Program-made: the position numbers and the translations under genes
Origin: an uncultured Acidobacteriota bacterium
GTDB lineage: Bacteria; Acidobacteriota; Vicinamibacteria; Vicinamibacterales; 2-12-FULL-66-21
Assembly: GCA_963710415.1 (NCBI GenBank)
Contig: CAVQAH010000024.1
Coordinates: 150,234-214,233, forward strand
Length of the DNA stretch: 64,000 nucleotides
Reading direction: 5' to 3'
Shown here: positions 23,311 to 57,740 of the stretch, in pieces
Layout: each line of letters opens with the position of its first letter
How positions within the stretch are numbered: the first letter of the stretch is position 1
The notes under the pieces: generated by a model
What the model was told of the DNA's origin: nothing
What the model saw: the letters and a program-made list of their open reading frames with translations, nothing else
Database searches by the model: none

Positions 23311-23355
23311 GGATGATCTACTCGAGGATGATCTACGCGAAGATGACCTACTCGA
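23311..23355. repeat. 15-nt tandem repeat x3
   Basis: 'GGATGATCTACTCGA GGATGATCTACGCGA AGATGACCTACTCGA' fills the 37-nt gap between convergent aroB and the regulator. The last unit contains the regulator's stop codon. Confidence 0.8.
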
Positions 23356-24742
23356 GGCGGTGCTCTTTGACCTTGGAGAGCAGCATCTTGTAGGTGATCT
23401 GCAACAGCTCGGCGGCGCGGCCCTTGTTGTTATCGGCTTCCCGCAGGACCTGCTGGATCTTCAGACGCTCGGCCAGTGACATCGCGCGCCTGCCGACGTC
23501 GGTGAGACTGCCCGACATCTCGAACTCCGCCCACGGATCCGCTTCGGGCTCCGGCTGCGCATGAACGGCGTGGAACGTCAGGTTGAGATGACGCGGCAGA
23601 ATCGTGTCGCCTTCGGCGAGGATGACGGCGCGCTCGATGCTGTTCTGCAGCTCGCGGACGTTCCCCGGCCACCGGTATGACACGAGCTGCTCCACGGCGG
23701 CCGGCGACAGCACGATCGGTTTCTTCTTCATGTCGCGGCAGAAGCGGTCCGTGAAGTAACGAGCGAGGAGCGGGATGTCGCCCGGCCGCTCGCGCAGCGG
23801 CGGCACCGTAATCGGGAACACCGATAGCCTGAAGAACAGGTCCTCGCGAAAGCGCCGCGCGGCCACTTGTGCGCGCAGACCGCGATTGGTTGCGGCGACG
23901 AGCCGGACGTCGACCGTCACGAGCGCGGTGCCCCCGACACGCTCGAAGCGTTTTTCTTCGAGGGCGCGGAGAATTTTCGCCTGCAGCGAGAGGGGCAGAT
24001 CGCCGATCTCGTCGAGGAACAGCGTGCCGTGGTGAGCCATCTCGAACTTGCCAGGCTTCCTGGCCACGGCGCCGGTAAACGCGCCCTTTTCATGTCCGAA
24101 GAGCTCGGTCTCGAGCAGGGTTTCAGGGATGGCCGCGCAGTTGATCGCGACAAACGGCTCGTCTGCGCGCGGGCTCAGCGCGTGCAGCGAGCGCGCGAAC
24201 AACTCCTTACCGGTACCGCTTTCCCCTTCGAGGAGCACCGTCGTGTCGGTCGACGCGGCGCGCTGCAGCGAAGCGAACACCTTGCGCAGCGAGGGATCTT
24301 CGCCGACGAGCAACGGCGCGCCGCGCCGCACCGCGAGCTCTTCCTTCAGCAGGAGGTTTTCCGTCTGTATGCGGCGCTGCTCCAGGGCGCGAGCGACCAG
24401 CAGCAACAGATGGTCGGGATCGACAGGCTTCGCCAGAAAGTCGAGCGCGCCTTCCCTCATGGCGGCGACCGCATCCTCGATGCTGCCGTACGCCGTCATG
24501 ACGATCACCGGGATCTCCGAATCGAGTTCCTTGGTCGCGCGGAGGACGCCGAAGCCGTCACCTGCCGGGAGCCGCAGATCCGAAAGGACGAGCGCTGGCT
24601 GGTTGTGCTGAAGAAGTTGGACGGCTTCTTCCTGATCGCGCGCCTCGAGGACACCATGACCCTGGCGCTCCAGCGCGTGCCGAAGCATCGCGCGCAGCGA
24701 GTCCTTGTCCTCGACGATCAGGATTTGGGCGGGCGCAGCCAA
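23348..24742 (-). CDS. Sigma54-dependent response regulator (NtrC family: REC + AAA+ + Fis-type HTH)
   Basis: ORF 23348..24742 (464 aa), intact. Contains '[19 protein letters not shown]...DLRLPAGDG', '[53 protein letters not shown]' and a C-terminal HTH '[23 protein letters not shown]'. Confidence 0.9.
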
Positions 24743-24756
24743 ACTCGAAGTGCGGG

Positions 24757-25341
24757 TCAGCGGAGCCAGCCTGGCGGCACGCCGGCCTTGCGGGCTTCTT
24801 CTTCGATGTCTTCGATCTGCTTCTTGTTCTGGGCGATCTCAGCCGTGACGCGCTCCATCTCCATCAGCGCCTTCTGACGGTCTTCGCCGATCTTGGCGCG
24901 CTGATACGGATCGTCGCGGTTCACGAAATCCGCAGACAGCGCGTTGATACGACTCTGAAGCGCCTCGTGGAACGCCTCGTTCCGTCGCAGCGCCTCGCGC
25001 GCCTGCACGATTCGCTGCTTCCACCAGGTCTCGTCCTTCTCCGGCTCGCCAGCGGGCTTCTGCCCCTCAGCTGGTTTCTGCTCTGTCGCCGCCCCAGCTG
25101 GCGCGGCCGCCGGCGGCGGTGGCGCCGGTTGCTGAGCAGAGGGCGGCAGATCCTTGTTCGTCAGAACTTTCGGTGTGCCGGTGGTCGTCTTTCGCCGCTC
25201 CTGTTCCTTGCGGGCAATTTCCGCAAGTGTCGGATTCTGCGCGTAGACAGGACTCACCCAGCCGAGCGCTCCCACGAAGACCAGGAGGACGCCGGCAAGC
25301 CTGACCTGGGAACGACGGCCGACGAGATTCGGTATCAGCAT
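24757..25341 (-). CDS. Secreted/periplasmic coiled-coil protein, function unknown
   Basis: ORF 24757..25428, likely starting at the Met at 25341 ('MLIPNLVGRRSQVRLAGVLLVFVGALGWVSPVYAQ' signal-like). A Pro/Ala-rich linker is followed by a coiled coil 'AREALRRNEAFHEALQSRINALSADF'. Confidence 0.5.
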   Translation of the reverse strand: MLIPNLVGRRSQVRLAGVLLVFVGALGWVSPVYAQNPTLAEIARKEQERRKTTTGTPKVLTNKDLPPSAQQPAPPPPAAAPAGAATEQKPAEGQKPAGEPEKDETWWKQRIVQAREALRRNEAFHEALQSRINALSADFVNRDDPYQRAKIGEDRQKALMEMERVTAEIAQNKKQIEDIEEEARKAGVPPGWLR

Positions 25342-25410
25342 GAGACGCAACCCTTTATAATTGTATCGGATACAGCCGGCTGAGCCAATAGGAATTAATG
25401 AGCAGAATTG

Positions 25411-25455
25411 CCCGATTCCGCTTTCCAATTCCCGCCATCCGATTTCCGCTTTCCC
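25411..25455. repeat. Degenerate heptamer array (TCCGATT/TCCGCTT type)
   Basis: 'GCCCGAT TCCGCTT TCCAATT CCCGCCA TCCGATT TCCGCTT TCCC'. Same unit family as 2805-2839 and 59831-59965. Confidence 0.75.
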
Positions 25456-25461
25456 ATGAGT

Positions 25462-26107
25462 TCACGGGACTGCACGCCGCGTCAGGACCTGCAGCCATCC
25501 GCCGGCGGCCCGGCCGACGGACGCCTCGAATGCGCGGCGGGCACCACCGCCGCCGTAGGCCTCGGCGTGGAGCAACACCCGCCCGTTGGTGTCTCGCGAG
25601 GGGTTCCCATCGCCATCCCACCCATCGTCCGCTATCCAGACGACGAGGTAGGCTGGCTGCGCGATCGAGCCGGCTGGCAGGATGTCACCGAGACTCGCGT
25701 GGGCGTAGAGCCGCCATTGCGGGCTGTCAGCGCCGAAAGAATGTGACCCGTACGTCGCGTCGCTGTCGCGCTGGCGCTGCAGGGTGAGCTGACCGAGATC
25801 GATACGCCGGCCGTCAGGCGCGACGAACTGCATCTGGCCGTCCGAGAATGATCCGGCGGTCGCGGGTGGCGGCAGCAGCGCAACGCTCCAGTCGGGCAAG
25901 CAGGTCGAGATCGAGCAGCGCACGTTCGAGTGCGGCGTCTGCGGCGTTCGACGTCTCCTCCCCGTGACGGAATGCCGCACTAATCAGCGTCTCGGTCGTG
26001 CTGACATACACGAGAGAAGCCGCGATCGCCGACAGCAACAGCGTCGTGAGAATCGCGATCAGCAAAGCCGCTCCCCTTTCGCTCGACGGTGCGGACGACT
26101 TGACCAC
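25462..26107 (-). CDS. pilX: PilX-like minor pilin, set A, one frame break
   Basis: ORF 25814..26107 has 'ERGAALLIAILTTLLLSAIAASLVYVSTTETLISAAF' (PilX_N-like). It continues in ORF 25462..25980 as 'SPQWRLYAHASLGDILP...AYLVVWIADDGWDGDGNPSRDTNGRVLLHAEAYG', paralogous to 32126..32891. The break is near 25870. Confidence 0.6.
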
Positions 26108-26110
26108 GGA

Positions 26111-27194
26111 TCACCTCGCCGTGCTCAGGTTGCGCGGCGCCACATCGAATGTCACCTCGAAGTCCTTCACCGCGTTCTCGATGGTGGACGCCGATCCGCG
26201 GTTCATGAAGTCTCCGCCGGATGCGCGCAGCTGGTCCGAGCCCGATTGGACGCGGACCGTCACTCGGACTCGACGGATCCTCAGCAGGTCCGCATCGAAC
26301 CGACCCGCTTCCGATTCCGCAAAACGGCCCATCCATCATCTGCTGCGTCGTCAGCGGCACGAGCGTCAGGCCAGGCAACGGTTGCAGGAGCGGAACCGGC
26401 GGAGAGCCTGCAGCATACGCGCAGTTTCCGGCTCCATCGATCGGAGCGGCCACGCTCGCCGGGTTCGGATCCGCATAGTAGGTGAACTGCAGCGCCACCA
26501 CGTTATCGACGAGCGGAACATCACTTTGATATCCGTCGTAGAGCATCAGCCGGTTGGTTGACGTGTCGTGATAGTAGACGTGGTGCACGACGGGCACGAC
26601 GACGCTCGACTCTGACGAGTAGAGTCGCGTGAACGGAGGGTTCGGCGCGCCATGTGCGAGGCCACCCGCGAGATCGGTGACGCTGAACAGCTCGTAGCCG
26701 CTGGCCGGCTCCTTGACGTCGACGATGGCCGCGCGTGAGCCTGGAACGAAGCCACAGATACCGGCGCCGGGGCACCCAGCGGCGGTCTTGACGGTGAGAA
26801 CCTCGTCGGGCGACGCCATATCGCTGGCGAGCGTCGCGCTCCATCCTTCATCAGGTACATGCGTGATGCTGATGCGATTGACGAAAGCGGTGCCTTCGGG
26901 GTCCGCGGCGCGCGCGCCGGTCCGCGCGGGAACAATCGGCGGCAGGTAATTGGCGAGCGTTCGGCCGGCCAGGCCATGGAGCGGCCCGGCGCCGGCGTTC
27001 ATCAGATCGCGCTGCATCATCGAGACAGCTACCCTGAGGCGTTGGTGTACGTCAGCCGCTTCGGGCTGCGATGCGGCCAATCGCTGAGACCGCGCGGCAA
27101 AGTGGAAGAGCATCGCCGCAGCGGTTGTGAAGACGGCAGCCGCCACCAACAGCTCGATCAGCGAGAAGCCGCGCGAGCAAGTCGAGTGGTGCAC
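26111..27194 (-). CDS. pilW: PilW-like minor pilin, set A, one frame break
   Basis: The GTG at 27194 opens the prepilin N-terminus 'RGFSLIELLVAAAVFTTAAAMLF' in ORF 25980..27410. The C-terminus 'DADLLRIRRVRVTVRVQ...KDFEVTFDVAPRNLSTAR' is in ORF 26111..26332. The break is near 26330. Confidence 0.65.
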
Positions 27195-27196
27195 GG

Positions 27197-27784
27197 CTAT
27201 TGGTCCTTCCGCGTCCTGAGTCCGACGAGGAGCGTGTCCTGACCACTGCGTACGCTCCACGGCCTGCTGCCTCGGCGAGCCTCTGCCGCGACCGTCGTGA
27301 CACGCACTGACAGAATCAGCGTGCGAGCGGGTGACACCGGCAGCGGCTGCACCGCCCAGCGCCGAATGAATATCGCGTCCCGTGGCGGTGTGGCACCGTT
27401 GCCGAGCCAACGGCCCTGGTCGTCGAGATAGTCGACAAATGGCGGAATGTTTGCGGACAACGTCCCCGCTGGCGAAGGCATCAGCCCCGTGCCGCTATCG
27501 TCAGGAGGATCGACACTCAGATTCGCCGTCGAATCGGACCTTGGCTGCGGGGTTGCCGATGATGCATCGTAGGCCCACGTCAGGGATCGAAGCTGCTCGA
27601 GTTTTGCGGCCGCGAGAATCGTGGAGGATGTCTGCTCGCGCGCAGCGGCAGCCGCCCGCATCGACATGGCAAAGAGCTGGGCGACCCCTATCGACACGGT
27701 CACCATCAGGCCGAGGGCAACGACAACCTCGATGAGCGTGAAGCCCGCGCAGCTTCTGAGGACCGTCCCATGTCTCCCCGCCAT
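27197..27784 (-). CDS. pilV: PilV-like minor pilin, set A
   Basis: ORF 27197..27784 (195 aa) with 'SCAGFTLIEVVVALGLMVTVSIGVAQLF'. It shares long motifs with 33993..34595, for example 'KLEQLRSLTWAYD' against 'KMEQIRSLTWGFD', and 'FVDYLD.QG.W.G.G.TPP..A.(F/Y)IRRW'. Confidence 0.7.
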   Translation of the reverse strand: MAGRHGTVLRSCAGFTLIEVVVALGLMVTVSIGVAQLFAMSMRAAAAAREQTSSTILAAAKLEQLRSLTWAYDASSATPQPRSDSTANLSVDPPDDSGTGLMPSPAGTLSANIPPFVDYLDDQGRWLGNGATPPRDAIFIRRWAVQPLPVSPARTLILSVRVTTVAAEARRGSRPWSVRSGQDTLLVGLRTRKDQ

Positions 27785-27797
27785 GACGGTCCGTGGT

Positions 27798-27812
27798 GCA
27801 ATGCGAACGCCA
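27798..27812 (-). promoter_or_regulatory. Candidate sigma54 (-24/-12) promoter abutting the pilV (set A) start codon
   Basis: The minus strand reads 'TGGCGTtcgcaTTGCaccacggaccgtcATG'. GG-N10-GC spacing is correct, and the ATG lies 13 nt after the -12 C. Confidence 0.45.
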
Positions 27813-27933
27813 GCCGGCGCGGAAGAGCCGACTGTCGTTTTCTCTCGGGAATCGAAGGAGGGTGGCGAGGGACTCCCGCGTCCCGCGCAACATCAGCACT
27901 TCCGTGATTGCAGCGGGTGCGGCAGAAACTGAA

Positions 27934-28851
27934 TCAGAGCGTCTGTGGATTTCCGGGGTTCGTCGGTGCCGGCGCGCCGGTCAGCTGGCCGATCCGCGCC
28001 TTGATCTTCTCTGCGTCTCCGGCCGCAGGCGCCAGGCGCAGATACTCTTCGTACGCCGCCACCGCATCGGTCGTGCGCTGCAGACGTTCGTAGCTCAGTG
28101 CAAGCGCGAAATGAAACGAGGCATCCGACGGCGACAGCGCGATCGCCTTCTTGTACTCCTCGACTGCCGCCAGGTCGTCGCCTTTCTTGTGCAGCGTCAG
28201 GGCCAGGTTGAACGTCGTTGCGTAGTCGCTTGGAAACAGCTGCTGAGCCTGACGGTAAGAGGCGATCGATTCGTCCCACTTGCCGAGCACTGACAGCGCC
28301 CGTGCGAGATTGAAGCGGTACGCCCAGCGATCTGGAATCAAGCGTAATCGCTTTTTGGAAGTGCGGCACCGCTTCCGCTGGCTTACCAAGCCGGACGAGG
28401 ATCTGCCCGAGGTTGCTGTGCGACTCGGCGTCATCAGGGTTCTTGGCAATCGCCGCCTTGTACTGCTCGAGAGCTGACTGGTAGTCGCCTGTGGCATACG
28501 CGGTCGCTCCGGCGCCCGACGGGTCGAGAAACGGCGTGGGCGCCGGTTCCGCCGGCTTGGCGGCTGCCGCCGCCGGGGCCGGTTCGGGCTTTGGCTGGCG
28601 GCGCGCCGCGAACGGATCGACGGGCTTGGTCGTGAAACCGCGGCCGGCTTGTCGCCTTTCAGGAGCCACAGACCTCCGATGCCCAGGACGAACGCGGCCC
28701 CAAGCGCCGCACTCCATTTGGCGAGCTGCTGGCTGTGGCGAGCGCTGACTGCAGGATCGGGACGGAAACGCGCGCGACAGCGCGGGCAGCGGTCGTGCGC
28801 CGCGTTCACCTTGGCGCCGCAGGACGGACAGAGAACGGCCTCACTCATCAT
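27934..28851 (-). CDS. Zinc-ribbon / TM / TPR-repeat protein, two frame breaks
   Basis: ORF 27934..28851 has N-terminal 'CPSCGAKVNAAHDRCPRCRA', a TM segment, and C-terminal TPR repeats ('YATTFNLALTLHKKGDDLAAVEEYKKAIALSPSDASFHFALALSY'). The middle TPR repeats ('YQSALEQYKAAIAKNPDDAESHSNLGQILVRLGKPAEAVPHFQKAI') are in ORF 27893..28717. Breaks are near 28650 and 28330. Confidence 0.6.
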   Translation of the reverse strand: MMSEAVLCPSCGAKVNAAHDRCPRCRARFRPDPAVSARHSQQLAKWSAALGAAFVLGIGGLWLLKGDKPAAVSRPSPSIRSRRAASQSPNRPRRRQPPSRRNRRPRRFSTRRAPERPRMPQATTSQLSSSTRRRLPRTLMTPSRTATSGRSSSGLVSQRKRCRTSKKRLRLIPDRWAYRFNLARALSVLGKWDESIASYRQAQQLFPSDYATTFNLALTLHKKGDDLAAVEEYKKAIALSPSDASFHFALALSYERLQRTTDAVAAYEEYLRLAPAAGDAEKIKARIGQLTGAPAPTNPGNPQTL

Positions 28852-31800
28852 CGGATTTCCCGCCAGGACAGGATGCGGACGCCGACCTGGCCGATACCGT
28901 TGTTGAAGTCCTCGGGATCGCCGAATGCTTCGACCGCGGCCCCGGTCTCACCGGCGGTACCCAGATACAAGTGCTGATCGACGATGAACGGTGCGGTCGC
29001 CCGCCCGGCCATCGCACGGACGATCGGGCTCTCGTTGTTCTCGAGCTTGCCGCTGTTGTTCGTGTCGTAGGCGGCGCCGCCGCTGTAGGTCAGCGCGTAG
29101 AGTCTCGAGGTGAAGTCCGCGCACGGCGTGCCGGCGACTTCAACGGTCGTCGTGTAGAACACGATGTCACCGGCGACCGATGGAGAGGTCGAAGGCCGCT
29201 CGCCATTTGCCAGGCCGCCGGAGAGGGTCACCGTGCCGAGATCGCGAGTGAACTTCGTCGTCGCGCCGGCGCCTGGCGAGTTGTCCTTGAGACCGAACAA
29301 CTGGAACGTTCCGAGGCCTCCTGGCGCCGTGGCTGCCAGCAGATCGCTGCCCGTCGCGAAGAACATGTACACATCTGCGCTGCCAACGAACAGCAAGGCC
29401 GATGAGGCATAGATGGGTGCCCCTGCGTCGACCATCTCCGAGACCGTGATCGCGCCCGCCGATGTGAAGTTGAACCGCCAGTACTTGCCGTCGATATCAC
29501 CGAGATACGCCTTGGTGACGACGGGGCTTCCCGCCTCACCTGCCGCGGTGGGGTCCGCCTGCAAGGCATTCTTGCGGCCGTTTCCGCCGATGTCGCCAAC
29601 CGAATAGCAGCCCGTGCCGGCGCACGACCCGCCGCCGCTGTTCCCAATCAACTCGCCGGTGTCCGCATTGATCAGGTACATCGACATGCCCGCTTTCGGC
29701 GCGGAGGCCCCGCGATTGGGAATCGACGCCTCGATATCCGGGAAATAGCCCGATCCAACGATCACCGCATTCAGCGAGCGATCCGGGGTCAGCGGACCAA
29801 CCGCCGGGTCCGACCACGTCAGGCCGACCGTCTTCTCGACGTGGTTCGCCGTCGCCTTGAGATCACCAAAGACCTTGAACCTGCCTCCGGGCGTCCCGTC
29901 GGCGACGGTGAACGTCGCGGTGTAGGTCGGGTCGAAGCTCGAGTAGTTCGGGAACGCCCACTTGAACTGGATGCTCTCGCCAGGCGAGTCGAACAGCGAC
30001 AGCATCGTGTTCACCGCGGTTTGTCCATCAGCCGTGGGATCGAGCCCCATGCCGGCTTCGGTGACGTCGAAGGCCTGATAGAACGTTCCGCCCTGGCCCT
30101 GCCCGATGATGAGCATGCTGCGCCAGCTGCCACTCAACTTGACTTCAGCGATCTTCGGCGAGCTGTCCACGAAGTAGTCGAACTGCTCGACCGGCTGGCC
30201 ATCGAGAAGTGTCCGAAGCTTCGGCAGCAGGTTGTACGGAATGAACGCCCATACCTCGAAGCCAGTCCGCGCGTCAACGGCGTGGATCATTCCGTCGTTG
30301 GCACCGAAGAAGATCATGCTGCGACGGTCCTTGTGGCTGCCAGCAAACGTACCGGTCGCGTCAGAACGCCCGTAGTCGTCGTCCGGCGGAGGATCGAGCG
30401 ATGGCGCGTCCATCAACGCCGGCGTGGACCCGATTACCGCTCCAAGCGCTTGCGCGCGGACGAACGTGATCAGAGTCGCCGCGTTCGACACCCCGCCAAG
30501 GTGAGGCGCGAGCGTGGCGGCGTTGCTGGTCGTGAATGCCACCATGGAACCGCCGCCAGATCCATTCGGGATGTAGGTGTAGATGTTGCGCGTGGCTCGG
30601 ATCCGATGGCGTTCTGGCTAGACCTGCCAGCGAAGGCCGTCCATCGATGTCGGGCCAGAGGCGCGTGCCGTCGTTGACGAATTTCCATCCGGCCGGTTTC
30701 GTCGCGTCGATTTCCGGCCGGTAGACGCGGAACGCTCGGAGTCGGCCATCGAACCCCGGAAGCCTGAAACCCGCACTGATCATCACGTTGCTGCGCTGCG
30801 GCAGCGGCTGACCACCTGGGATGGCCGTGATGTCGGTGTTCGGCAGCGGGCTGCCGGCCGAATTGACACCGTCCTTCAGGTTGACGGTGCCGATGATCGG
30901 GCTGACCGGGACGAAGTCGCTCGAATTGCCGGTATCGAAATCCGCCTGGCGCGCAAATCCGGCCTGGACGGCGTAGTTGATGGCAGCGGTGACGTCATTG
31001 GCGGTGACCGCCTTTGTGTACCTGCCGCCACTGTTGGTCGCGACCGAACGGAGCTCCAACTCGTCGGCAGCCGCCGGCCTCACAGCCACGACGTGGATGG
31101 GAACTCGTTTGGTCACGCCGCTGGCGGTGACGGTCAGAAACGTCGTCGCGGTGGTGACCGGATCGTTGCTCGCGTTGTACGCCGCGTCGCCGTCGTCTTT
31201 GCCGCTCGTGATCAGGACGACGACCGTGTTGCGGCATGAACGGTTGGCCGCGCTGTCGGCGGTCATCGCCGCGATGGCGGCAGCCTTCGCATCCAGCAAG
31301 GCGTAGTTGATTGGGCGGTCCTCGTAGCCGACGCCGCCGCGGCCCGCAGGCACCAGGCCAAGGTCGTCGCCAATCGGCCGGTTCAGTCGGTCCAGCACCG
31401 TCGTCGCCGAGGCATTCGCCGGCGTGACCATCACGGTCCCGGCCGGCGCTGCGGCCTGGGCATAACTCGCGGCGGCAACACTCGGCGCATAGATCCCGTA
31501 ACGGCCGAGGCCACCGGCGTTGCACGGATTGGTATCACCGTAGAGCAGCTGGGCCAGGCTGTTGACAGATACCGGACGATCGCAATTCGGCGACACGCGC
31601 CACGCCGGGGTCGACTGGCGCAGCCTGAGCAAACCCCATCTGAACATGCTCCCCGCGTTCTCCGTGACCGCGGCGGCCAGCCCGCTTTTGGCGATCGAGT
31701 AGCGCGTCTCGTCGAGGAACGCCAGATCGGCCGGCGCATTCGACGTCAGTGGCACCGCTGGATCCCAGACGGCCGCCGAGGGCGTAATCAAATCAGCGGA

Positions 31801-32126
31801 GTACCCAGCCGGCAGCGCCACGTGGGTCAGGTTCCGGTAGACGCGACGATAGGTCTTGACGGTGGCCGGCGTTGATCCCCGGGAAGGCCCCCATCACCGC
31901 GGGATCCGCGGTCGTCGAGTAGAACGCAGGATCGTAGAAGTTGCCGTTCCCGTCCTCGAGCATGCGTACGCGACGTGTCCACGACGACAATGACGGTCGG
32001 AGGGACGCGCTTGAGAAAAAGGAGCGGGTCGAGCTGCGCCCACACGGTCGCCGAACCGGCCAGCACGAGCGTCGCTGCCAGTATCGCGGCCGTCGCGCGA
32101 CGAGCGGACGAAGAAGTCATCAACAT
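28848..32126 (-). CDS. pilY1: PilY1-like pilus tip protein (N-terminal vWA-like + C-terminal beta-propeller), at least three frame breaks
   Basis: ORF 31827..32126 has a signal peptide plus 'VIVVVDTS'. ORF 30361..31821 carries the vWA-like region 'NTVVVLITSGKDDGDAAY'. ORF 28848..30545 has the hallmark PilY1 propeller motif 'MIFFGANDGMIHAVDARTGFEVWAFIPYNLLPKL'. Breaks are near 31960, 31825 and 30550. Confidence 0.75.
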
Positions 32127-34595: not shown

Positions 34596-35119
34596 TGACC
34601 GTCACCGTTTTCGACTTGCCCCTTGCGGGTGACCGTGATCGTCACGGTCGTGGCGATGTTCTGAGCTACGTTGGATACAACCTGCGCCGCGGTGCCGTCC
34701 GGCCGGAACTCGAGCACTTCACTGGTCACCGTGGTACCGTCCGACACGATACGCACCGGGCCGTCGAAATTCGGCCGCGTCATGATGTCCTGGTCCGGCG
34801 CGGGGAACGGGTAGTTGGAAGGCACGCACCGGTTGGTGGCCTGATCCGTCGCGTTGCCCAGCACTTCGACGGTCCGGAAGTAACCGGTCGCCGGGCAGTT
34901 GATCCGGACACGCAGCAGGCGGTTGACCGTGACCGCCTTGAGGCGCGCGCTCTGAAGCTCACGCTCGACCTCGCGCGCCGCCGCGGCCAGCTTGCTGCTT
35001 TCCCCGAGGTCACTGAGGATCGGCAGCGCGAAGGCCATCATGGTGGCCGCCACGGCGATGACCATCACCAGTTCCGTCAGGGAGTACCCGCGCTCGGATC
35101 GACTTGCAGAAAACGTCAC
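34565..35119 (-). CDS. FimT/GspH-like minor pilin, one frame break near the 3' end
   Basis: ORF 34529..35119 has 'SERGYSLTELVMVIAVAATMMAFALPIL...AAREVERELQSARLKAV'. A better C-terminus 'KTVTVNGAGKVVLAQ*' lies in another frame, with a break near 34615 and the stop at about 34565. Confidence 0.65.
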
Positions 35120-35131
35120 GCACCCTGTTGA

Positions 35132-35146
35132 GCAATGCCGCTGCCA
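35132..35146 (-). promoter_or_regulatory. Candidate sigma54 promoter abutting the fimT-like start codon
   Basis: The minus strand reads 'TGGCAGcggcaTTGCtcaacagggtgcGTG'. It shares 'TTGCTCAAC' with the pilA promoter, and the GTG start lies 12 nt after the -12 C. Confidence 0.5.
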
Positions 35147-35272
35147 CTGCCGGGCTCCCAGTTGGCACGATGACCCTAAATTACTGTCCGGATTTCTCTT
35201 ATCTGGCGGGGTTCAGAAACGGATCACACTACTGTCTGGTAGGCCCTGTGCCGTTCTGCGACGCGCGGTTAC

Positions 35273-35329: not shown

Positions 35330-36589
35330 TCACCCCGGGAGAGGGAGCGTCACGGTCAGCCTGGCCCCGCCACCCTCGGCATTGGCGGCCGCCACGCGTC
35401 CGTTGTGCGTCACGATGATCTTCTGGACGAGCGCGAGGCCGAGTCCCGTGCCGCGCGCTTTCGTGGTGAAGAAAGGCCTGAACATGCGTGCCTGCATGGC
35501 CTCCTGGATTCCCGCGCCGTTGTCGGTCACTGTCACGCGGAGCACCGGATGGCCAGGCTCGCGGCTGCCTTCGATGACGATTCTTGGCGTCACATTCGCT
35601 TCGAGGCACGCCTCCAGGGCGTTGCGACAGAGGTTGCTGAAGGCCTGCCGCAGCAGCACCTCGTCACCATCGACGTGGCCAAACTCGCCGAGAATGTCGA
35701 TTGTCCCTCCCCTGGATCTGACGTCGCCGCGCACGTCGTCGGCGGCACGCTCGACCACTGCCGACATGTCCACGGGGGTCAGCACCAACTCGGTGGGCTT
35801 GGCGAAGTTCAGGAAGTTGGTGACCACCTGACCGAGCGCCTCGGTCTCGTCGCGGATGCCGACCACGCACGCTCTGAAATCGTCGGGCAGACGATCGAGA
35901 TCCAGCAGCCGGCTATAGCCATGAATCGTCGCCAGACCATTGCGGAATTCGTGCGCGATGCCGGCGGTCAGCTCACCGAGCCGCGCCAGGCTGTCTTTCA
36001 GCCGCAATTGCTCCTCGAGCTCGACGACGTCGCTCAGGTCCGTGAACAGGCAGATGGCGCCGTGCGCCGCATCGTCGCCGGCGATGGGCGAGACGGTGAC
36101 GCCGAGGTGTGACGTCGTACCGTTGGCTTTCTTCATCTGCACCGCGCGGCGTACGATGGCGCGGCGGCTCGTCAGACATTCGTCCAGGACGTCGGCCAAC
36201 GCGCTGCTGTCCGTCAACATTTCACGAAAATGTCCGAGCGGCGCGTCCGTGGGCAGATGCAGTATCGATCGGCCGGCGGGGTTCAACGTGCGCACGGCGC
36301 CCTCGGCGCCGACCACCAGCAGGCCTGACGTCATGCTCGCGATGATTTCGCTGCTCAGGCGTTCTGATGCCTCGGCGCGCGCCGCCATCGCACGCTCCTC
36401 GATCCGGAGCTTGCGCACGGCTTCCTCCATGGCTGATGCCATGAAGGCCGTTTCCGCACCTTCGACACGACCTGATTGCGTAGCGGCGCGGGCGGCGGTA
36501 AAGAACTTCGCTGCCGCGAAGGCGAGCAACCCCACCAGCGCCGCGACGACGGCCGTCAAACCGAGGAAGAGGTAGGCTGACTGAGTCAT
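35330..36589 (-). CDS. Membrane sensor histidine kinase (TM + PAS-like + HisKA + HATPase_c, NtrB/AtoS-like)
   Basis: ORF 35330..36589 (419 aa), intact. The H-box is 'LGELTAGIAHEFRNGLATIHGYSRLL'. 'VTDNGAGI' and 'GTGLGLALVQKIIVTHNG' are present. Confidence 0.85.
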   Translation of the reverse strand: MTQSAYLFLGLTAVVAALVGLLAFAAAKFFTAARAATQSGRVEGAETAFMASAMEEAVRKLRIEERAMAARAEASERLSSEIIASMTSGLLVVGAEGAVRTLNPAGRSILHLPTDAPLGHFREMLTDSSALADVLDECLTSRRAIVRRAVQMKKANGTTSHLGVTVSPIAGDDAAHGAICLFTDLSDVVELEEQLRLKDSLARLGELTAGIAHEFRNGLATIHGYSRLLDLDRLPDDFRACVVGIRDETEALGQVVTNFLNFAKPTELVLTPVDMSAVVERAADDVRGDVRSRGGTIDILGEFGHVDGDEVLLRQAFSNLCRNALEACLEANVTPRIVIEGSREPGHPVLRVTVTDNGAGIQEAMQARMFRPFFTTKARGTGLGLALVQKIIVTHNGRVAAANAEGGGARLTVTLPLPG

Positions 36590-41489: not shown

Positions 41490-42026
41490 TTACCGGGCGG
41501 TCGGCAGCTTCAGCTCGCGCCCGTTCGAAGGGGCGCCCTTCTCGGGCATCTTCCCGGTGAACGTCTCCATGCCCTCGAAGATCACACGGTCGACGTTCGA
41601 GCCGAAATACCGAATCCCGGTCGACCCCGGGTTGGTGGGGTCGGCAGTCACCTGATAACCGGAAGCGGGCTTGTTGCCGGTGCACGCCTTCACGTCGGTC
41701 TCGACCTCGGTGCCGGCCATCTGCACGAAGTACCCATTCTTCCGCACTTGCTCGGCGTAGGTCAGGTCGGGACTCAGGAAAGCCGTGCCAGACCCGGGCA
41801 CCGGTGTTCCCAGCTCCACCAACGTCGGCGCGAAATTCTGCCGACCGCACGTCTGCATGTAAGCGAACTGTGCCTGGTTGATCGCCTCGAGCGCGGCAAT
41901 GGCGGATGCCTCGGCGCCCAATATCCGCGCGTTTCGATACGACGCGACCGAGATCGACAGCAGGACCGCGATGACCGCCATCACGATCAACAGCTCGACC
42001 AGCGTGAAACCGCGAATACCTCGCAC
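41490..42026 (-). CDS. Type IV pilin paralog 1
   Basis: ORF 41490..42026 (178 aa) with 'IRGFTLVELLIVMAVIAVLLSISVASYRNARILGAEASAIAALEAINQAQFAY'. Two Cys residues are present. Confidence 0.8.
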   Translation of the reverse strand: MRGIRGFTLVELLIVMAVIAVLLSISVASYRNARILGAEASAIAALEAINQAQFAYMQTCGRQNFAPTLVELGTPVPGSGTAFLSPDLTYAEQVRKNGYFVQMAGTEVETDVKACTGNKPASGYQVTADPTNPGSTGIRYFGSNVDRVIFEGMETFTGKMPEKGAPSNGRELKLPTAR

Positions 42027-42039
42027 GAATCCAGCTTAC

Positions 42040-42217
42040 ACGTGTTTACTGCGGACGTGTGCAGTGCCACGTGCTGCCGTGGTCCGTGGTCGCGTGCGTC
42101 CGTGTCTGCCGTGCGATCTGCAGCACGCGCGAACATAACCGTGACAGCAGTATCGATGCGAGACACGTAGCACGTGACGAAGCAGCACGGACTACGGAGG
42201 ACGTCCGCACGTGCACG
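42040..42217. repeat. ACGTGC-type heptamer array forming a long imperfect inverted repeat
   Basis: The arms are 'CTGCGGACGTGTGCAGTGCCACGTGCTGCCGTGGTCCGTGG...' and '...CACGGACTACGGAGGACGTCCGCACGTGCACG'. Same unit family as 61801-61967 and 63955-64000. Confidence 0.7.
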
Positions 42218-42764
42218 TTACTGCAGCACGGTCCCTCCGCCTGACGGATCCATCTCCCCCTCGGTTGGCGGAGATGCCGTCCGGCCTGAAGAACAGCACG
42301 TACTTGTTCGTCGTGGCGAACGCCCTGTGGCCGGACCGCCCAATCGACAGCGGAGCGGCGGTCAGGTAATAGCCCATGCGCGTCTGCGATCCGTGGCAGT
42401 CGAATGGCCCGAGCACGGCGCTGCCGGCGTCGAGCGTGATTGTGTAGCCGCTCTTCGTCGACGGGTCCACCGCGAGGTCGGGCGAGATGAATCCGACGGA
42501 TCCGCCGGGGCATGCGGTGGCGAGCACCGACAACTGCACCGCGTATCCTCCGGTCGTGGCCGACGCCGCAAACGCGGCTTCGGCGCTGTTCACCGCGCGC
42601 AGCGTTCCGATGGCGGAGGACTCGTTGCCCGCCATGCGTGCCCGCAGCAGCATCGGCAGCGCCATGGCCGAGACGATTCCGATGATCGCCACCGCTGCCA
42701 GAAGTTCTATCAGTGAAAATCCGCGCGCGCCGTTCGAACGCGCTCGCGCAGCACGCCCCGCCAT
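42192..42764 (-). CDS. Type IV pilin paralog 2 (3' end probably mis-framed; likely true stop near 42218)
   Basis: ORF 42192..42764 has 'ARGFSLIELLAAVAIIGIVSAMALPMLLRARMAGNESSAIGTLRAVNSAEAAF'. An alternative frame ends '...SGGGTVLQ*', parallel to '...ETGGTPLQ*' in the pilA alternative frame. Confidence 0.8.
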   Translation of the reverse strand: MAGRAARARSNGARGFSLIELLAAVAIIGIVSAMALPMLLRARMAGNESSAIGTLRAVNSAEAAFAASATTGGYAVQLSVLATACPGGSVGFISPDLAVDPSTKSGYTITLDAGSAVLGPFDCHGSQTRMGYYLTAAPLSIGRSGHRAFATTNKYVLFFRPDGISANRGGDGSVRRRDRAAVTCTCGRPP

Positions 42765-42857
42765 ACATTCCTCCGTTCAGGGCGGCCTTCGGTCGGGTCT
42801 CGTCCCCAGGCGAACCTTCCGCCTTGTCGAGGCCCCCGGCGTGAGCTGTCGAAGGCC

Positions 42858-42895
42858 AAAAAAAAAGGATGCCCGTGCAGCCGGGCATCCTTTTT
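42858..42895 (-). terminator. Strong intrinsic terminator after pilA
   Basis: The minus strand reads 'AAAAAGGATGCCCG-gctgca-CGGGCATCC-TTTTTTTTT'. It has a 9-bp perfect stem, a 6-nt loop and a 9-T tract. Confidence 0.85.
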
Positions 42896-42901
42896 CGGGT
42901 C

Positions 42902-43438
42902 TTACGAGGTGCTTACTGGAGCGGCGTGCCGCCGGTCTCCGGCAGGAGCGCCACCGGTCGCGTCCGCCACGAAGTAGAGCGTGCCGTGCGCTGCAGTCGA
43001 GAACCCGCGAACGCCCGTGTTGCCGACGCCCACCGGAACTGCCGTCGCGTAGTAACCCGTGCGGCTCACCGTCGTGCCGCTGCAATCCGTCGTCACGTCC
43101 GCAGGCGTTCCAACCGTGCTGTCCGCCAGCGCGATCGTGTAGCCGCTCTTGATGGACGGGTCGGCCGCGAGGTCAGGCGAAATGAACCCCTGCGACGAGC
43201 CCGGGCAGGGCGTTGACAGCACCGCCAGCAGAATCGCATATCCGCCGCCACCCGCCGACGCTGAATACGCCGCTTCCGCGCTGTTGACCGCGCGAAGCGA
43301 ACCGATAGCCGACGACTCGTTGCCCGACATGCGGGCGCGCAGCAGACCCGGAACGGCGATCGCCGCGATGATGCCGATGATCGCCACGACGATCAGCAGC
43401 TCAATAAGCGTGAAACCCTTCTGGTTACGAACCTTCAT
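42902..43438 (-). CDS. pilA: Major type IV pilin (own sigma54 promoter and terminator)
   Basis: ORF 42902..43438 (178 aa) with 'QKGFTLIELLIVVAIIGIIAAIAVPGLLRARMSGNESSAIGSLRAVNSAEAAY'. Two Cys residues are present. An alternative-frame C-terminus '...ETGGTPLQ*' would put the stop at about 42913. Confidence 0.85.
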   Translation of the reverse strand: MKVRNQKGFTLIELLIVVAIIGIIAAIAVPGLLRARMSGNESSAIGSLRAVNSAEAAYSASAGGGGYAILLAVLSTPCPGSSQGFISPDLAADPSIKSGYTIALADSTVGTPADVTTDCSGTTVSRTGYYATAVPVGVGNTGVRGFSTAAHGTLYFVADATGGAPAGDRRHAAPVSTS

Positions 43439-43529
43439 GACACTCTCCCTCGAAAAATTCAGTTGGCCGCTTGAGCGTTATGTCGGACTCGACTTGGCCT
43501 AAGCCCAGCGGCCGACGAGCTTCCGTTGA

Positions 43530-43544
43530 GCAACGGAAGTGCCA
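43530..43544 (-). promoter_or_regulatory. Sigma54 (-24/-12) promoter of pilA
   Basis: The minus strand reads 'TGGCACttccgTTGCt', a perfect consensus, about 95 nt upstream of the pilA ATG. pilR (a sigma54 activator) is adjacent. Confidence 0.8.
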
Positions 43545-43652: not shown

Positions 43653-43667
43653 TGACAAATTCTGTCA
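43653..43667. promoter_or_regulatory. Palindrome TGACA-N5-TGTCA (candidate enhancer/PilR site) upstream of pilA
   Basis: 'cTGACAaattcTGTCAa' lies about 115 nt upstream of the -24 element in a locally AT-richer region. A near-identical site occurs at 51257..51271. Confidence 0.5.
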
Positions 43668-43835: not shown

Positions 43836-45267
43836 TTACTTCAGATTGTATTTCTTCATGTAATACCGGAACGATCGGAAGCTCATGCCGAGCAGTTCGG
43901 CGGCCTTGACCTTGACACCGCCGGCGCGCCGTAGGGCTTCGGCGATGTACTCCCGCTCGATGTGCTGGACGTGCTGTTCGAGGTCGATCCCGCCTTCGGG
44001 GAAGCCGTCCCCTGGCTGGACGTTCACCGGGCAGTTGGATGCGGCGCTGTTTCGCGGACCTGCTCGGGCAGGCTGTCCGCGAGGATCGTCGGCGTGCGCT
44101 CGAGCGCCACCGCCCGTTCGATGGCGTTTTCGAGCTCGCGGATATTCCCCGGCCACGGGTAGGCCTTCAGGCAGGCCAGCGCGTCGCCCGAGATGCCGGT
44201 AATCCCCTTCCCCATCTGCTCGGCGAAGCGGGTCACGAAGTGCTCGGCCAGGAACGGGATGTCTTCGACCCGCTCGCGCAGGGCTGGCAAGACGAATGGG
44301 GATGACGTTGATCCGGTAGAAGAGGTCCTCGCGGAACTCGCCCGCGGCCACCATCTTCGACAAATCCCGGTTGGTGGCGGCAATGACCCGGATGTCCGCT
44401 TCGACCTCCTCGGTCCCGCCGAGCCGCCTGAAGCGCCGCTCCTGCAGCACACGCAGACAGCTTGACCTGGACGAGCGGGCTCATCTCGCCGATCTCGTCG
44501 AGGAAGATCGTGCCCTTGTCGGCGACTTCGATCAGTCCCTTCTTGTTGGTGTCCGCGCCCGTGAACGCGCCGCGCATATGTCCGAACAGTTCCGAGTCGA
44601 GCAGGGTCTCGGACAGTGCCCCGCAGTTGACCGCCACGAACGGCTTGTCTTTTCGGAGCGAGTGGAAGTGGATGGCCCGCGCGACGAGCTCCTTGCCGGT
44701 GCCCGACTCGCCGGTGATCAGCACCGTGCTGCTGGTCGGCGCAATCGTCTCGATCAGCTGGAAGACCGCGAGCATCGGCTCGCTGCGCCCGATGATGTTC
44801 GAGAACTGGTGCGCGGTCTGCAGCGCGCGCTTCAGGAGCACGTTCTCCCGCTGCAGGTGGCGGCGCTCCATTTCCTTTCGCACCCGCAGCCGGACTTCGT
44901 TGGCGGCGCCAGGCGACTTGTGCACGTAATCGGCCGCGCCGAGGCGCAGCGCTTCGACCGCGGTGTCCGTCGACGCGAACGCCGTCATCACGATGCTGAT
45001 GATCTCCGGGTCGATCTTCTTGGCCTCCCTGAGGACGTCCACGCCGCTCATCTGCGGCATCCGGATATCGGTGATCAGGATGTCGACGCGTTCGCGCTTG
45101 AGCAGGTCGATCGCGACCGCCCCATTCTCGGCAAGCAGCACTTCATAGCCATCGCGGCGCAGCACGATCGTCAGCAGCTCCCGCATCGACCGCTCGTCGT
45201 CGACGACGAGCACGCGGGGAGGAGTCTCCGACGCCGAACGATTCGGTGTTCGCACCTCGGTGGCCAT
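43836..45267 (-). CDS. pilR: Sigma54-dependent response regulator PilR, three frame breaks
   Basis: ORF 44233..45267 carries REC plus '[53 protein letters not shown]'. It continues in ORFs 43836..44450 and 44024..44452 ('[14 protein letters not shown]'). The C-terminal HTH is '[25 protein letters not shown]'. Breaks are near 44455, 44290 and 44030. Confidence 0.85.
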
Positions 45268-45270
45268 AGA

Positions 45271-46949
45271 TCAGTTCGTCAGCGCCGCGTGGGATTCGGC
45301 CGGTTGCGAGGCGAGCGGAAGCTTCACGGTCACGCTCGTGCCCTGATTCGGTTGCGACGTGACCTGAAGCTCGCCGCCGTAGTCGCTGACAATCCGGTGG
45401 ACGATCGAAAGTCCGAGCCCGGTTCCGCGTGAGAACCCGCCGCGAAATGGCTGCAGGATGCCCTCGAGCTGATCGGACGGGATGCCGACGCCCTCGTCGC
45501 GCGACCACGATCATCGCCTCGCCGGGCGCGTCCCCGTCGCGGTCTACTGCCGTGACGGCCAGTGTGAGCCGGCCGCCGCCGGGCATCGCGCGAAGCCCGT
45601 TGGTCGCGAGGTTCCACACAATCTGCCTCATTTGCCCTTCGTCGGCCGTGCACCAGACCGGCTCGTCGGGCACCTCCAGCTTCATGTCGTGCGTCTCGTG
45701 CAGCTCGGGGCTGTTCTGCAGCAGCGTTGCCGTGTCCGTCACCGCCTTGCGCAGGTCGAGCCTCGCGGCAGACTGACGCTGCGGCCGCGCATAGGCCAGG
45801 AAGCTCTTGATCGTCTCGTTCAGCCGCTCGGACTCGCGCATGACGATGTCCATCAGCTGTGCCTGTTCGTCGGTCAGCGGCAGTTCCTGGCGCAGGATCT
45901 GAATCGAACCGGACATCGACGCCAGCGGGTTTCGAATCTCGTGTGCGATCCCGGCCGCCATCTCGCCCACCGCGGCGAGGCGCTGCTGAATCCGTGCCTC
46001 GCGCTCGTGTTTCCGCGCGTCGGTGACGTCCTGGAACGTGATCACGAACCCGCTCTCGCCGCGGGGCGTGATCAGAATCGCGGTGCTGATGCCGAGCTCG
46101 ATCTGCCGGCCGTCCGCCTGCCGGTAGTCGGTACTCGACGCGAGGTAACGGCGGCCGCTGCTCCCTCGGCCCGAACAAGGCCGAACACCCGGGCGGCAGC
46201 TGGAGAATTTCGAACGCGCCGCGGCCGACGGCGTAGCGCGCCGGAATGCCGGTGATCGTCTCAGCGGCACGGTTGAACGTGAGCACGCGGCCGGCGAGAT
46301 CGGTGGTCAACAGCCCGCTCGCGAGACTGTTGATGGCGTATTCGCTGAACGCTTGCAGGTCGGCAATCTGGTTGGACGCCTCCTCGAGCTCCTGCCCGGC
46401 GCGGCGCAGACCTTCGGCCAGGTATCCGCTCAGGGAAGCGACGGCAATGAAGCCGAAGACGTTCAAGCCGACCGTATAGAGCGCCACGCGCTCGGGCGGC
46501 AGGATCTCGGCGCCGGTGACGACCGACATCGGCGGCGGTCCCGCGTATTGCGCCCATACGAGCCCGCTGTAGATCAGCGAGCTCAACACGCCGATCATCA
46601 GCCCGCCGCGCAGCGACTGGATAGTACTCGCGGCGATGATCGGCAGCATGTACAGCGTCGAGAAGGAGCTCACGACACCGCCGGTCATGTGCACGACGGC
46701 CGACACGATCAGGACGTCGCAGGCGAGCTGGACGTCGACGATCCAGCGATGCTGTTCGGCCTGCTTCAGCAGCAGCGAATACACCGCCGTCAGCGTGTAG
46801 GTCAGGCCGATGAGGAAAAAGAACGGATCGACCGGCAGCGCGCCCGGCGAATGGATTTGGATCACAATCGCCGAGCCGAGCAGGACCGTTACGGCTGCCG
46901 CGCGGCAGCCAATCAGCCAGAGAAGTCTTCGACGAAGCTCGACCGCCAC
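45271..46949 (-). CDS. pilS: Sensor histidine kinase PilS (multi-TM + PAS + HisKA + HATPase), two frame breaks
   Basis: ORF 45330..46949 carries the TM region and the start of the PAS domain. ORF 45143..46270 has the H-box 'AAGIAHEIRNPLASMSGSIQIL'. The last ~75 codons ('RDEGVGIPSDQLEGILQPFRGGFSRGTGLGLSIVHRIV...ALTN*') are in a third frame, with the stop at about 45271. Breaks are near 46150 and 45500. Confidence 0.85.
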
Positions 46950-57302: not shown

Positions 57303-57658
57303 ATGAAAGACTACCGCAAGCTCGTGGTGTGGCAGAAAGCGCACATGCTCACGCTGCAGACGTACGAACTTTCTCCGCACTTACAGAAACCCGAAGCGTG
57401 GCCTCTGCGCGATCAGCTGTTGCGAGCAGCGATCTCGATTCCCTCCAACATCGCTGAAGGCGCCGGCCGCGGCACCGATCCAGACTTTCGTAGATTTCTA
57501 TGGCATTCCTTGGGTTCGTCGAACGAACTTGAGTATGATCTCCTTCTTGCCCGAGACCTCCGGTTCCTGCAGGGTGACATTGCATTGCCGGCTCACCGGC
57601 GCAGCTGGAGGAGGTCCGGCGGATGCTCACGGGCCTCGTACAGTCGTTGAACTCGTGA
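57303..57658 (+). CDS. Four-helix-bundle protein (23S rRNA intervening-sequence protein / Avd-like family, PF05635-type), one frame break
   Basis: ORF 57267..57650, from the Met at 57303. It reads 'MKDYRKLVVWQKAHMLTLQTYELS...LRDQLLRAAISIPSNIAEGAGRGTDPDFRRFLWHSLGSSNELEYDLLLARDL'. A family-typical C-terminus 'AQLEEVRRMLTGLVQSLNS*' is in another frame, with a break near 57590. Confidence 0.75.
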
Positions 57659-57673
57659 TAACGCCGAGTCGCC

Positions 57674-57722
57674 GGCAGCTGGCCGCTGGCAGCTGGCGAC
57701 TGGCAGCTGGATGCTGGCAGCT
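57674..57722. repeat. Heptamer array GGCAGCT-type x7 (right flank, inverted relative to the left flank)
   Basis: 'GGCAGCT GGCCGCT GGCAGCT GGCGACT GGCAGCT GGATGCT GGCAGCT'. It contains 'GGCAGCTGG', the reverse complement of 'CCAGCTGCC' in the left array. Confidence 0.9.
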
Positions 57723-57740
57723 GACGCGGAGGTTGCCCTT

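Follow-up and report, generated by a model that had tools for sequence, protein, structure and literature searches.

The window analyzed here is the 64,000-nucleotide (nt) stretch of contig CAVQAH010000024.1, which covers a large type IV pilus region of a Vicinamibacteria-type soil acidobacterium, lying wholly on the minus strand. We found a -24/-12 element in front of pilV2, the first gene of a minor-pilin module, and it is very probably a genuine sigma-54 promoter. Its -12 box directly abuts the pilV2 start region. Judged from motif, spacing, conservation and upstream sites, we consider it likely that the promoter depends on sigma-54 and an activator, that its transcript starts on the start codon or no more than 5 nt from it, and that this message is translated.

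A putative sigma-54 promoter abuts the pilV2 start codon

On the minus strand, TGGCGT (27812-27807), the spacer tcgca (27806-27802) and TTGCA (27801-27797) are followed by the ATG at 27784-27782. The initial annotation, made from the letters of this DNA, had read a GG-N10-GC spacing here and a distance of 13 nt between the -12 C and the ATG of a PilV-like prepilin. Both readings were confirmed. On the minus-strand letters 27812-27797, GG and GC lie ten bases apart, as the canonical GG-N10-GC layout requires, and position counting gave exactly 13 nt, made up of the A of TTGCA and ccacggaccgtc. Compared with the consensus TGGCAC-N5-TTGCW, the element has two mismatches, both in the -24 hexamer.

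ATG 27784 is the first start codon downstream of an in-frame stop. No alternative ATG, GTG or TTG was found ahead of the G/FTLIEV cleavage site in the pilV2 frame. Because no other start codon precedes the prepilin cleavage site, the start codon of pilV2 is certain. The encoded protein passed the N-terminal methylation motif PF07963 (23.2 bits, cut-off 21.2) and scored below the cut-off of the PilV equivalog TIGR02523 (25.3 bits, cut-off 52.2). By these profile scores, the product is PilV-like and not a certified member of the PilV family.

Two other roles of the element were considered and rejected. It could be a coding part of a longer open reading frame (ORF), but an upstream in-frame start is lacking, its conserved positions show no period of three, and the leader peptides differ among loci. 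TTGCA could be a sigma-70 -35 box, but the implied start would fall inside the coding region, beyond the sole start codon. No TANNNT -10 box was found ahead of ATG 27784; the sigma-54 -12 box is the abutting element instead. A search with Rfam gave no match in the window.

The putative promoter is conserved in orthologous pilV2 loci

A search for exact copies of the PilV2 sequence gave no contig. A protein search gave 207 PilV2 relatives, and scanning metagenomes with the alignment trimmed at its N-terminus gave 80 loci. A scan of genome contigs with the full-length alignment was dominated by the generic GFTLIEV prepilin pattern and gave two true relatives, both of the PilV1 type, PilV1 being the copy in minor-pilin module 1. 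The 80 loci separated cleanly into PilV1 and PilV2 orthologue groups. PilV1 orthologues lay directly after a GspH-like gene and had no motif of their own, and PilV2 orthologues were always the first gene following an intergenic region. The pilV2-type set with upstream sequence comprised 18 loci plus the closer relatives L124-L127; as L125 and L126 duplicate each other, 21 of these loci are distinct.

The -24/-12 motif (GG-N10-GC) was kept in 21 of 21 pilV2-type loci. GG, TTGC and the spacing were invariant in all 18 orthologous promoters, and L124-L127 agreed. The mean column identity of the pilV2 intergenic regions was 43%. The background frequency of the motif in the same loci was 6.5e-4 per position, which corresponds to 0.4% for a match in a 6-nt distance window. 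The gene upstream of the promoter was the PAS kinase gene in 10 loci, the TPR gene in four, D2 in two, PilD in two and a divergent gene in one. Since the upstream neighbor differs among loci, the promoter is tied to pilV2 itself rather than to the surroundings of that gene. The stretch from promoter to ATG was identical in L127, an independent assembly that is 96% identical overall. In another PilV2-type locus (L054:1-123), a repeated ctgtgttgtctgtggctaaagaaaa unit at the edge of the contig takes the place of the promoter region; it may be an insertion or an assembly artefact.

The initial annotation had proposed to check conservation of the motif-to-ATG distance in orthologous loci, and this distance proved to be conserved as well. 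The first usable start codon lay past the -12 C by 13 nt in 10 loci, 14 nt in three, 15 nt in one, 16 nt in four and 17 nt in one. The distance was thus 13-17 nt in 19 of 21 loci, with a sharp lower bound at 13 nt. The two remaining loci had 22 nt (L045, with GGAGGG in the spacer) and 29 nt (L120, with AGGAGG in the spacer). No GGAGG-type element was present in any 13-17 nt spacer, and both longer spacers contained one. The pilV2 leader peptide ranged from 5 to 23 amino acids (aa) across loci. Because its length varies, it is the promoter-to-start distance that is held constant, not the promoter-to-cleavage-site distance. Of 18 loci, 16 had a C right before the start codon and 17 had a pyrimidine there; since the loci are related, the nominal binomial p-value for this bias is too favorable.

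Against these data, we weighed the possibility that GC-rich intergenic DNA matches the sigma-54 consensus here by chance. The loose pattern GG-N8-TTGCW was not enriched in the window (9 matches, 11.9 expected), and neither was the wrong-spacing control GG-N9-TTGCW (10 matches, 11.8 expected). A single loose match proves little because the loose pattern is not above expectation. The strict pattern TGGC-N7-TTGC occurred seven times, whereas 2.3 ± 1.5 were expected and none of 100 shuffles reached seven. Three of the seven strict matches lie just upstream of pilin genes on the correct strand (27798, 35132 and 43530). The pilV2 site exceeds chance because of where it lies and because relatives keep it. 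More than 20 diverged orthologous loci, with differing surroundings and upstream genes, all have GG and TTGC unchanged, and the composite architecture described below is unique in the window. A chance origin appears effectively refuted by the conservation data, and we give it almost no credence. An extra GG-N8-TTGCT match is present at 26061-26075 on the minus strand, inside the last part of pilW2; the following gene starts about 80 nt downstream of the match, which could be chance or an internal promoter.

Conserved upstream sites and a co-encoded activator

The intergenic alignment showed three conserved blocks besides the -24/-12 motif. Two of them are CGCAG-N3-CTGCG palindromes, named UAS1 and UAS2 (upstream activator-type sites, distal and proximal). 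Of 18 loci, 14 had the palindrome centers at 127-130 and 93-96 nt upstream of the -12 C. In the window, UAS1 begins 2 nt past the stop codon of the TPR gene. UAS2, 35 bp from UAS1, is a weaker copy of the palindrome that matches at 6 of 8 half-site positions. Both fall within the range of roughly 80-150 nt expected of sigma-54 upstream activator sites. The third block, TTYCC-N4-6-RAAW, was found in 15 of 22 loci, with its center 45-47 nt ahead of the -12 C. DNA-bending (IHF-type) sites occupy such a position in many sigma-54 promoters. The window and all loci were searched on both strands for the -24/-12 motif together with both palindromes at the conserved distances. This composite search recovered the pilV2 promoters and a few weak matches without TTGC. 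In the 64-kb window, the composite layout occurred at position 27812 only.

The last gene of the module 2 operon encodes EBP2, an NtrC-type response regulator. Its Sigma54_activat domain (PF00158) was recognized with E = 7.5e-70, and it contains GAFTGA, the loop that contacts sigma-54. EBP2 was encoded downstream of the pilV2 module in every locus that was long enough, with 82-95% identity. It is likely the activator of the pilV2 promoter, and UAS1 and UAS2 are its candidate binding sites. A PAS histidine kinase is encoded in the window at 35330-36589, and its gene is the direct upstream neighbor of the pilV2 promoter in the 10 loci mentioned above. This kinase is likely the sensor partner of EBP2.

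These sites also bear on another explanation, in which the element binds sigma-54 holoenzyme or another factor non-productively, like a roadblock or repressor, and the operon is driven by another, unrecognized promoter further upstream that gives a leadered mRNA. Non-productive and intragenic sigma-54 sites are known in enterobacteria, and the third block could serve another regulator. However, no sigma-70-like promoter was found in 27300-28300, and two palindromes at fixed distances together with a co-encoded GAFTGA activator are what a productive sigma-54 promoter needs. We consider non-productive binding improbable.

Predicted transcription start and regulatory circuit

In -24/-12 numbering, initiation occurs about 11-13 nt past the -12 C. 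RNA polymerase favors a pyrimidine at -1 and a purine at +1. In dRNA-seq (differential RNA sequencing) of C. jejuni, sigma-54 motifs lay 8-13 nt upstream of transcription starts (PMC3847290). The A of ATG 27784 is the 14th base past the -12 C. With initiation 11-14 nt past the -12 C, the predicted leader would therefore be 0-3 nt long. The C that precedes the start codon in most loci fits initiation on the first base (A or G) of that codon.

From these features, we infer the following circuit. The PAS kinase probably phosphorylates EBP2. EBP2 would bind and oligomerize on the two CGCAG-N3-CTGCG sites about 129 and 94 nt upstream of the -12 element, and the DNA would loop across the conserved block about 46 nt upstream of it. 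EBP2 would then spend ATP to open the closed complex of the sigma-54 holoenzyme at TGGCGT-N5-TTGCA. The transcript would begin on ATG 27784 or 1-3 nt ahead of it, because the only possible start codon begins 14 nt past the -12 C, and it would span the operon pilV2-pilW2-X2-D2-EBP2. PilV2 would be translated without a Shine-Dalgarno site, as from a leaderless mRNA. Because the activator would be co-transcribed with its target operon, the circuit should be self-reinforcing, with EBP2 boosting its own synthesis.

Related promoters of module 1 and pilA

The initial annotation had noted the same arrangement at 35117-35146 and had counted the two sites as independent occurrences that make chance less likely. 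The arrangement is present there, 12 nt ahead of GTG 35119, the start codon of a GspH/FimU-like prepilin gene. Both sites are real, but they are not statistically independent, since they belong to paralogous modules whose PilV1 and PilV2 are 52% identical. The annotation's inference that each module has a sigma-54 promoter of its own and a near-leaderless mRNA is supported. TGGCA[AG]-N5-TTGCT was very strongly kept in about 30 module-1 loci (for example L092, L123 and L071).

The module-1 promoters have features of their own. The prepilin cleavage codon lies at a fixed 42-44 nt from the -12 C. Many module-1 loci have an in-frame GTG 10-12 nt past the -12 C and an ATG six bases further. Others have a GGGGG or AGGAG run right before the ATG, outside the canonical sigma-54 transcript. 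We tested whether the module-1 promoter shares the enhancer layout of pilV2 and rejected this, as the upstream sites differ. Upstream of the module-1 promoters lie pairs of a site of another form, GCAGAAYTGC, separated by about 21 nt (35210-35265 on the minus strand of the window), whose spacer is one base shorter than that of the pilV2 palindrome. The sites suggest that these promoters are served by a related but different activator.

The classic pilA promoter of the window served as an internal comparator. It has a leader of about 80 nt and a GGGAG ribosome site ahead of ATG 43438. A perfect palindrome, TGACAGAATTTGTCA, at 43653-43667 on the minus strand is located 130 nt upstream of the pilA -12 C, at the same distance as the distal site of pilV2. 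It is probably the PilR site. Since the pilA promoter has a long leader and a ribosome site, this organism uses both leadered and abutting sigma-54 layouts. The start-abutting layout appears specific to the minor-pilin modules. The three tandem pilin genes (41490-43438, minus strand) differ in their starts. The first two have ribosome sites, GGGAG and GGAGG, and the third has a GTG start and no such site.

Evidence against leaderless initiation and the possibility of read-through

Several points weigh against an activator-dependent transcript that starts at the pilV2 start codon. The G-rich, ribosome-site-like run between the -12 element and the ATG in module-1 promoters is not explained by purely leaderless initiation. 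The loci with 16-17 nt are more likely to have leaders of 3-5 nt, as a start on the codon would be unusually far from the -12 element. The pilV2 loci are phylogenetically related, so that the counts given above overstate their independence. Shine-Dalgarno use is low across the window generally, and because such sites are scarce, a missing ribosome site before pilV2 is weak evidence. The rpoN gene was not among the window ORFs scanned, and its presence is implied by the two sigma-54 activators in the window. Finally, the stretch from the TPR stop codon to pilV2 showed no terminator-like structure, and pilV2 could therefore be transcribed by read-through as well.

Read-through could account for more than this. 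The promoter may be real and its transcript may serve mainly pilW2, X2, D2 and EBP2, with PilV2 made chiefly from read-through mRNAs that begin upstream, within the PilY1/TPR operon or the kinase operon. In that case, nothing but genome compaction would lie behind the short distance to the start codon. The missing terminator fits this explanation, as do the closely packed genes on the same strand, and with many window genes lacking a Shine-Dalgarno site, internal initiation without one seems common. The distances argue otherwise. A lower bound at 13 nt, the narrow range in 19 of 21 loci and strong ribosome sites in the longer spacers only suggest selection that keeps the start codon inside the promoter's own transcript. 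The frequent C at -1 of the start codon also fits initiation on that codon. In L045, the upstream gene is divergent and read-through is impossible, yet the promoter is still kept. We regard read-through as an unlikely main source of PilV2, and a sigma-54 transcript starting at or near the start codon as the better explanation of the distances.

Organization of the pilus gene cluster

Homologues carry the names Vicinamibacter* or Acidobacteria. In transcription order, the cluster begins with PilB, PilT, PilC, a PilS-type kinase, PilR and the three pilin genes. A DsbA-like gene, ABC transporter genes, a TPR gene, PilD and the PAS histidine kinase follow. Minor-pilin module 1 with PilY1, a zinc-ribbon/TPR gene, module 2 and EBP2 complete the cluster. 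The gene order of module 2 was the same in L044, L046, L066, L089 and L122. The coordinates of the features are listed in Table 1.

Table 1. Positions of the pilV2 promoter, its associated sites and related genes in the window
Feature	Position	Strand	Details
Sigma-54 type -24/-12 promoter (putative)	27797..27812	-	TGGCGT-tcgca-TTGCA; GG 27811-27810, GC 27799-27798
Predicted transcription start zone	27784..27787	-	11th-14th nt past the -12 C; from geometry
pilV2, PilV-like minor prepilin, first gene of module 2	27197..27784	-	195 aa; leader MAGRHGTVLRSCAG, then FTLIEV
UAS1, candidate distal upstream activator-type site	27922..27932	-	TCAGTTTCTGC; CGCAG-N3-CTGCG; center 129 nt upstream of the -12 C
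UAS2, candidate proximal upstream activator-type site	27886..27898	-	TGCTGATGTTGCG; center 94 nt upstream of the -12 C
Third conserved block	27838..27851	-	TTCCCGAGAGAAAA; TTYCC-N4-6-RAAW; center about 46 nt upstream of the -12 C
Rest of module 2	24757..27194	-	PilW-like prepilin 27194-25980, ORFs 25980-25462 and 25428-24757; tightly packed
EBP2, NtrC-type response regulator, last operon gene	23348..24742	-	Receiver, AAA+ with GAFTGA, HTH_8
Zinc-ribbon/TPR gene, directly upstream of pilV2	27934-28851	-	
Module-1 sister promoter	35117..35146	-	TGGCAGcggcaTTGCT; 35146-35131 = TGGCAG-cggca-TTGCT; 12 nt; GTG 35119
PAS histidine kinase	35330..36589	-	PAS, HisKA and HATPase only
Classic pilA sigma-54 promoter	43529..43544	-	TGGCAC-ttccg-TTGCT; internal comparator

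The window holds several split genes and 1-nt indels. Compared with the 96%-identical contig L127, two 1-nt insertions at about 26308 and about 25900 on the minus strand alter where pilW2 ends and where the following gene begins. The products of these two genes have 404 and 172 aa here, whereas those of relatives have 360 and about 210 aa. The PilR-type activator gene beside pilA (43836-45267, minus strand) is split over two frames. ORF 44233-45267 ends within the AAA+ domain, and ORF 43836-44450 encodes the rest of AAA+ and HTH_8; either a mutation has shifted the frame or the assembly is in error here. PilY1 (28848-31821, minus strand) is split into the overlapping ORFs 30361-31821 and 28848-30545, whereas relatives have one product of 1,089-1,102 aa. 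An EF-G-like gene on the plus strand (57651-59828) also seems split, with the GTPase domain at 57651-58373 and domains III, IV and C at 58857-59828.

Comparison with known systems and implications

The pilV2 system resembles the PilS/PilR-sigma-54 control of pilA in Pseudomonas aeruginosa, Myxococcus xanthus and Geobacter. Both have an NtrC-family AAA+ regulator with GAFTGA, a -24/-12 promoter before a pilin gene and palindromic sites about 100-130 nt upstream of the promoter. The window has a PilS/PilR system of its own, with a 6TM_PilS kinase (45330-46949), PilR and the pilA promoter (43529-43544). The pilV2 system differs from such systems in several ways. Its target is a minor-pilin operon, and the PAS kinase has no match to the PilS membrane domain. 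Its site is CGCAG-N3-CTGCG, whereas that of the window's pilA promoter is TGACA-N5-TGTCA. The activator gene closes the target operon on the 3' side, and the pilV2 start codon abuts the promoter, unlike that of pilA with its leader and ribosome site. Although it would work alike, the pilV2 system lacks the defining features of PilS/PilR, namely the target and the membrane domain of the kinase.

In Pseudomonas aeruginosa, FimS/AlgR is the two-component system for fimU-pilVWXY1E and is separate from the major-pilin system. The pilV2 system is similar in that a two-component system would be dedicated to a minor-pilin/PilY1 operon. AlgR is of the LytTR type and acts with a sigma-70 promoter and a normal leader, whereas pilV2 has a -24/-12 promoter and an AAA+ activator.

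The leaderless mRNAs of Actinobacteria, Deinococcus-Thermus and Caulobacter have a sigma-70-type -10 element about 6-8 nt from the start codon. pilV2 differs from this class, as it has no -10 box; a sigma-54 -12 box abuts instead, and transcription would depend strictly on the activator. Sigma-54 promoters are normally drawn with leaders that bear ribosome sites. Full-text searches of the literature gave no title or abstract describing a sigma-54-driven leaderless class, and this is a missing match, not proof of novelty.

In gene order, the window mirrors the M. xanthus pil cluster with PilS2/PilR2. In the window, the order pilB-pilT-pilC-pilS-pilR-pilA, ABC transporter genes and pilD is followed by a second kinase and a second sigma-54 activator. 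In myxobacteria, pilS2/pilR2 sit within the single pil cluster, and the review describing this names no direct PilS2R2 targets (PMC6060248). The two systems are likened by gene order, and this lineage differs in that minor-pilin genes with a dedicated promoter lie between the kinase and the activator. This position, together with the promoter of their own, points to a direct target.

A stronger proposal can be made, although we consider it somewhat less likely than not. Sigma-54 initiation may fall precisely on the first base (A or G) of the start codon, giving truly leaderless, strictly activator-gated mRNAs, a design conserved for the minor-pilin (pilus-priming) operons across Vicinamibacteria, with an activator in the PilR2 position closing a positive feedback. 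If this is true, systems of the PilS2/PilR2 type would have a direct target, and leaderless genes driven by sigma-54 would be known as a conserved class for the first time. Leaderless translation would be fed directly by a class of promoters that are activator-gated and essentially non-leaky, and control based on the 5' untranslated region would be removed. The second pilus-linked two-component system would gain a minor-pilin operon as its target, with predicted binding sites.

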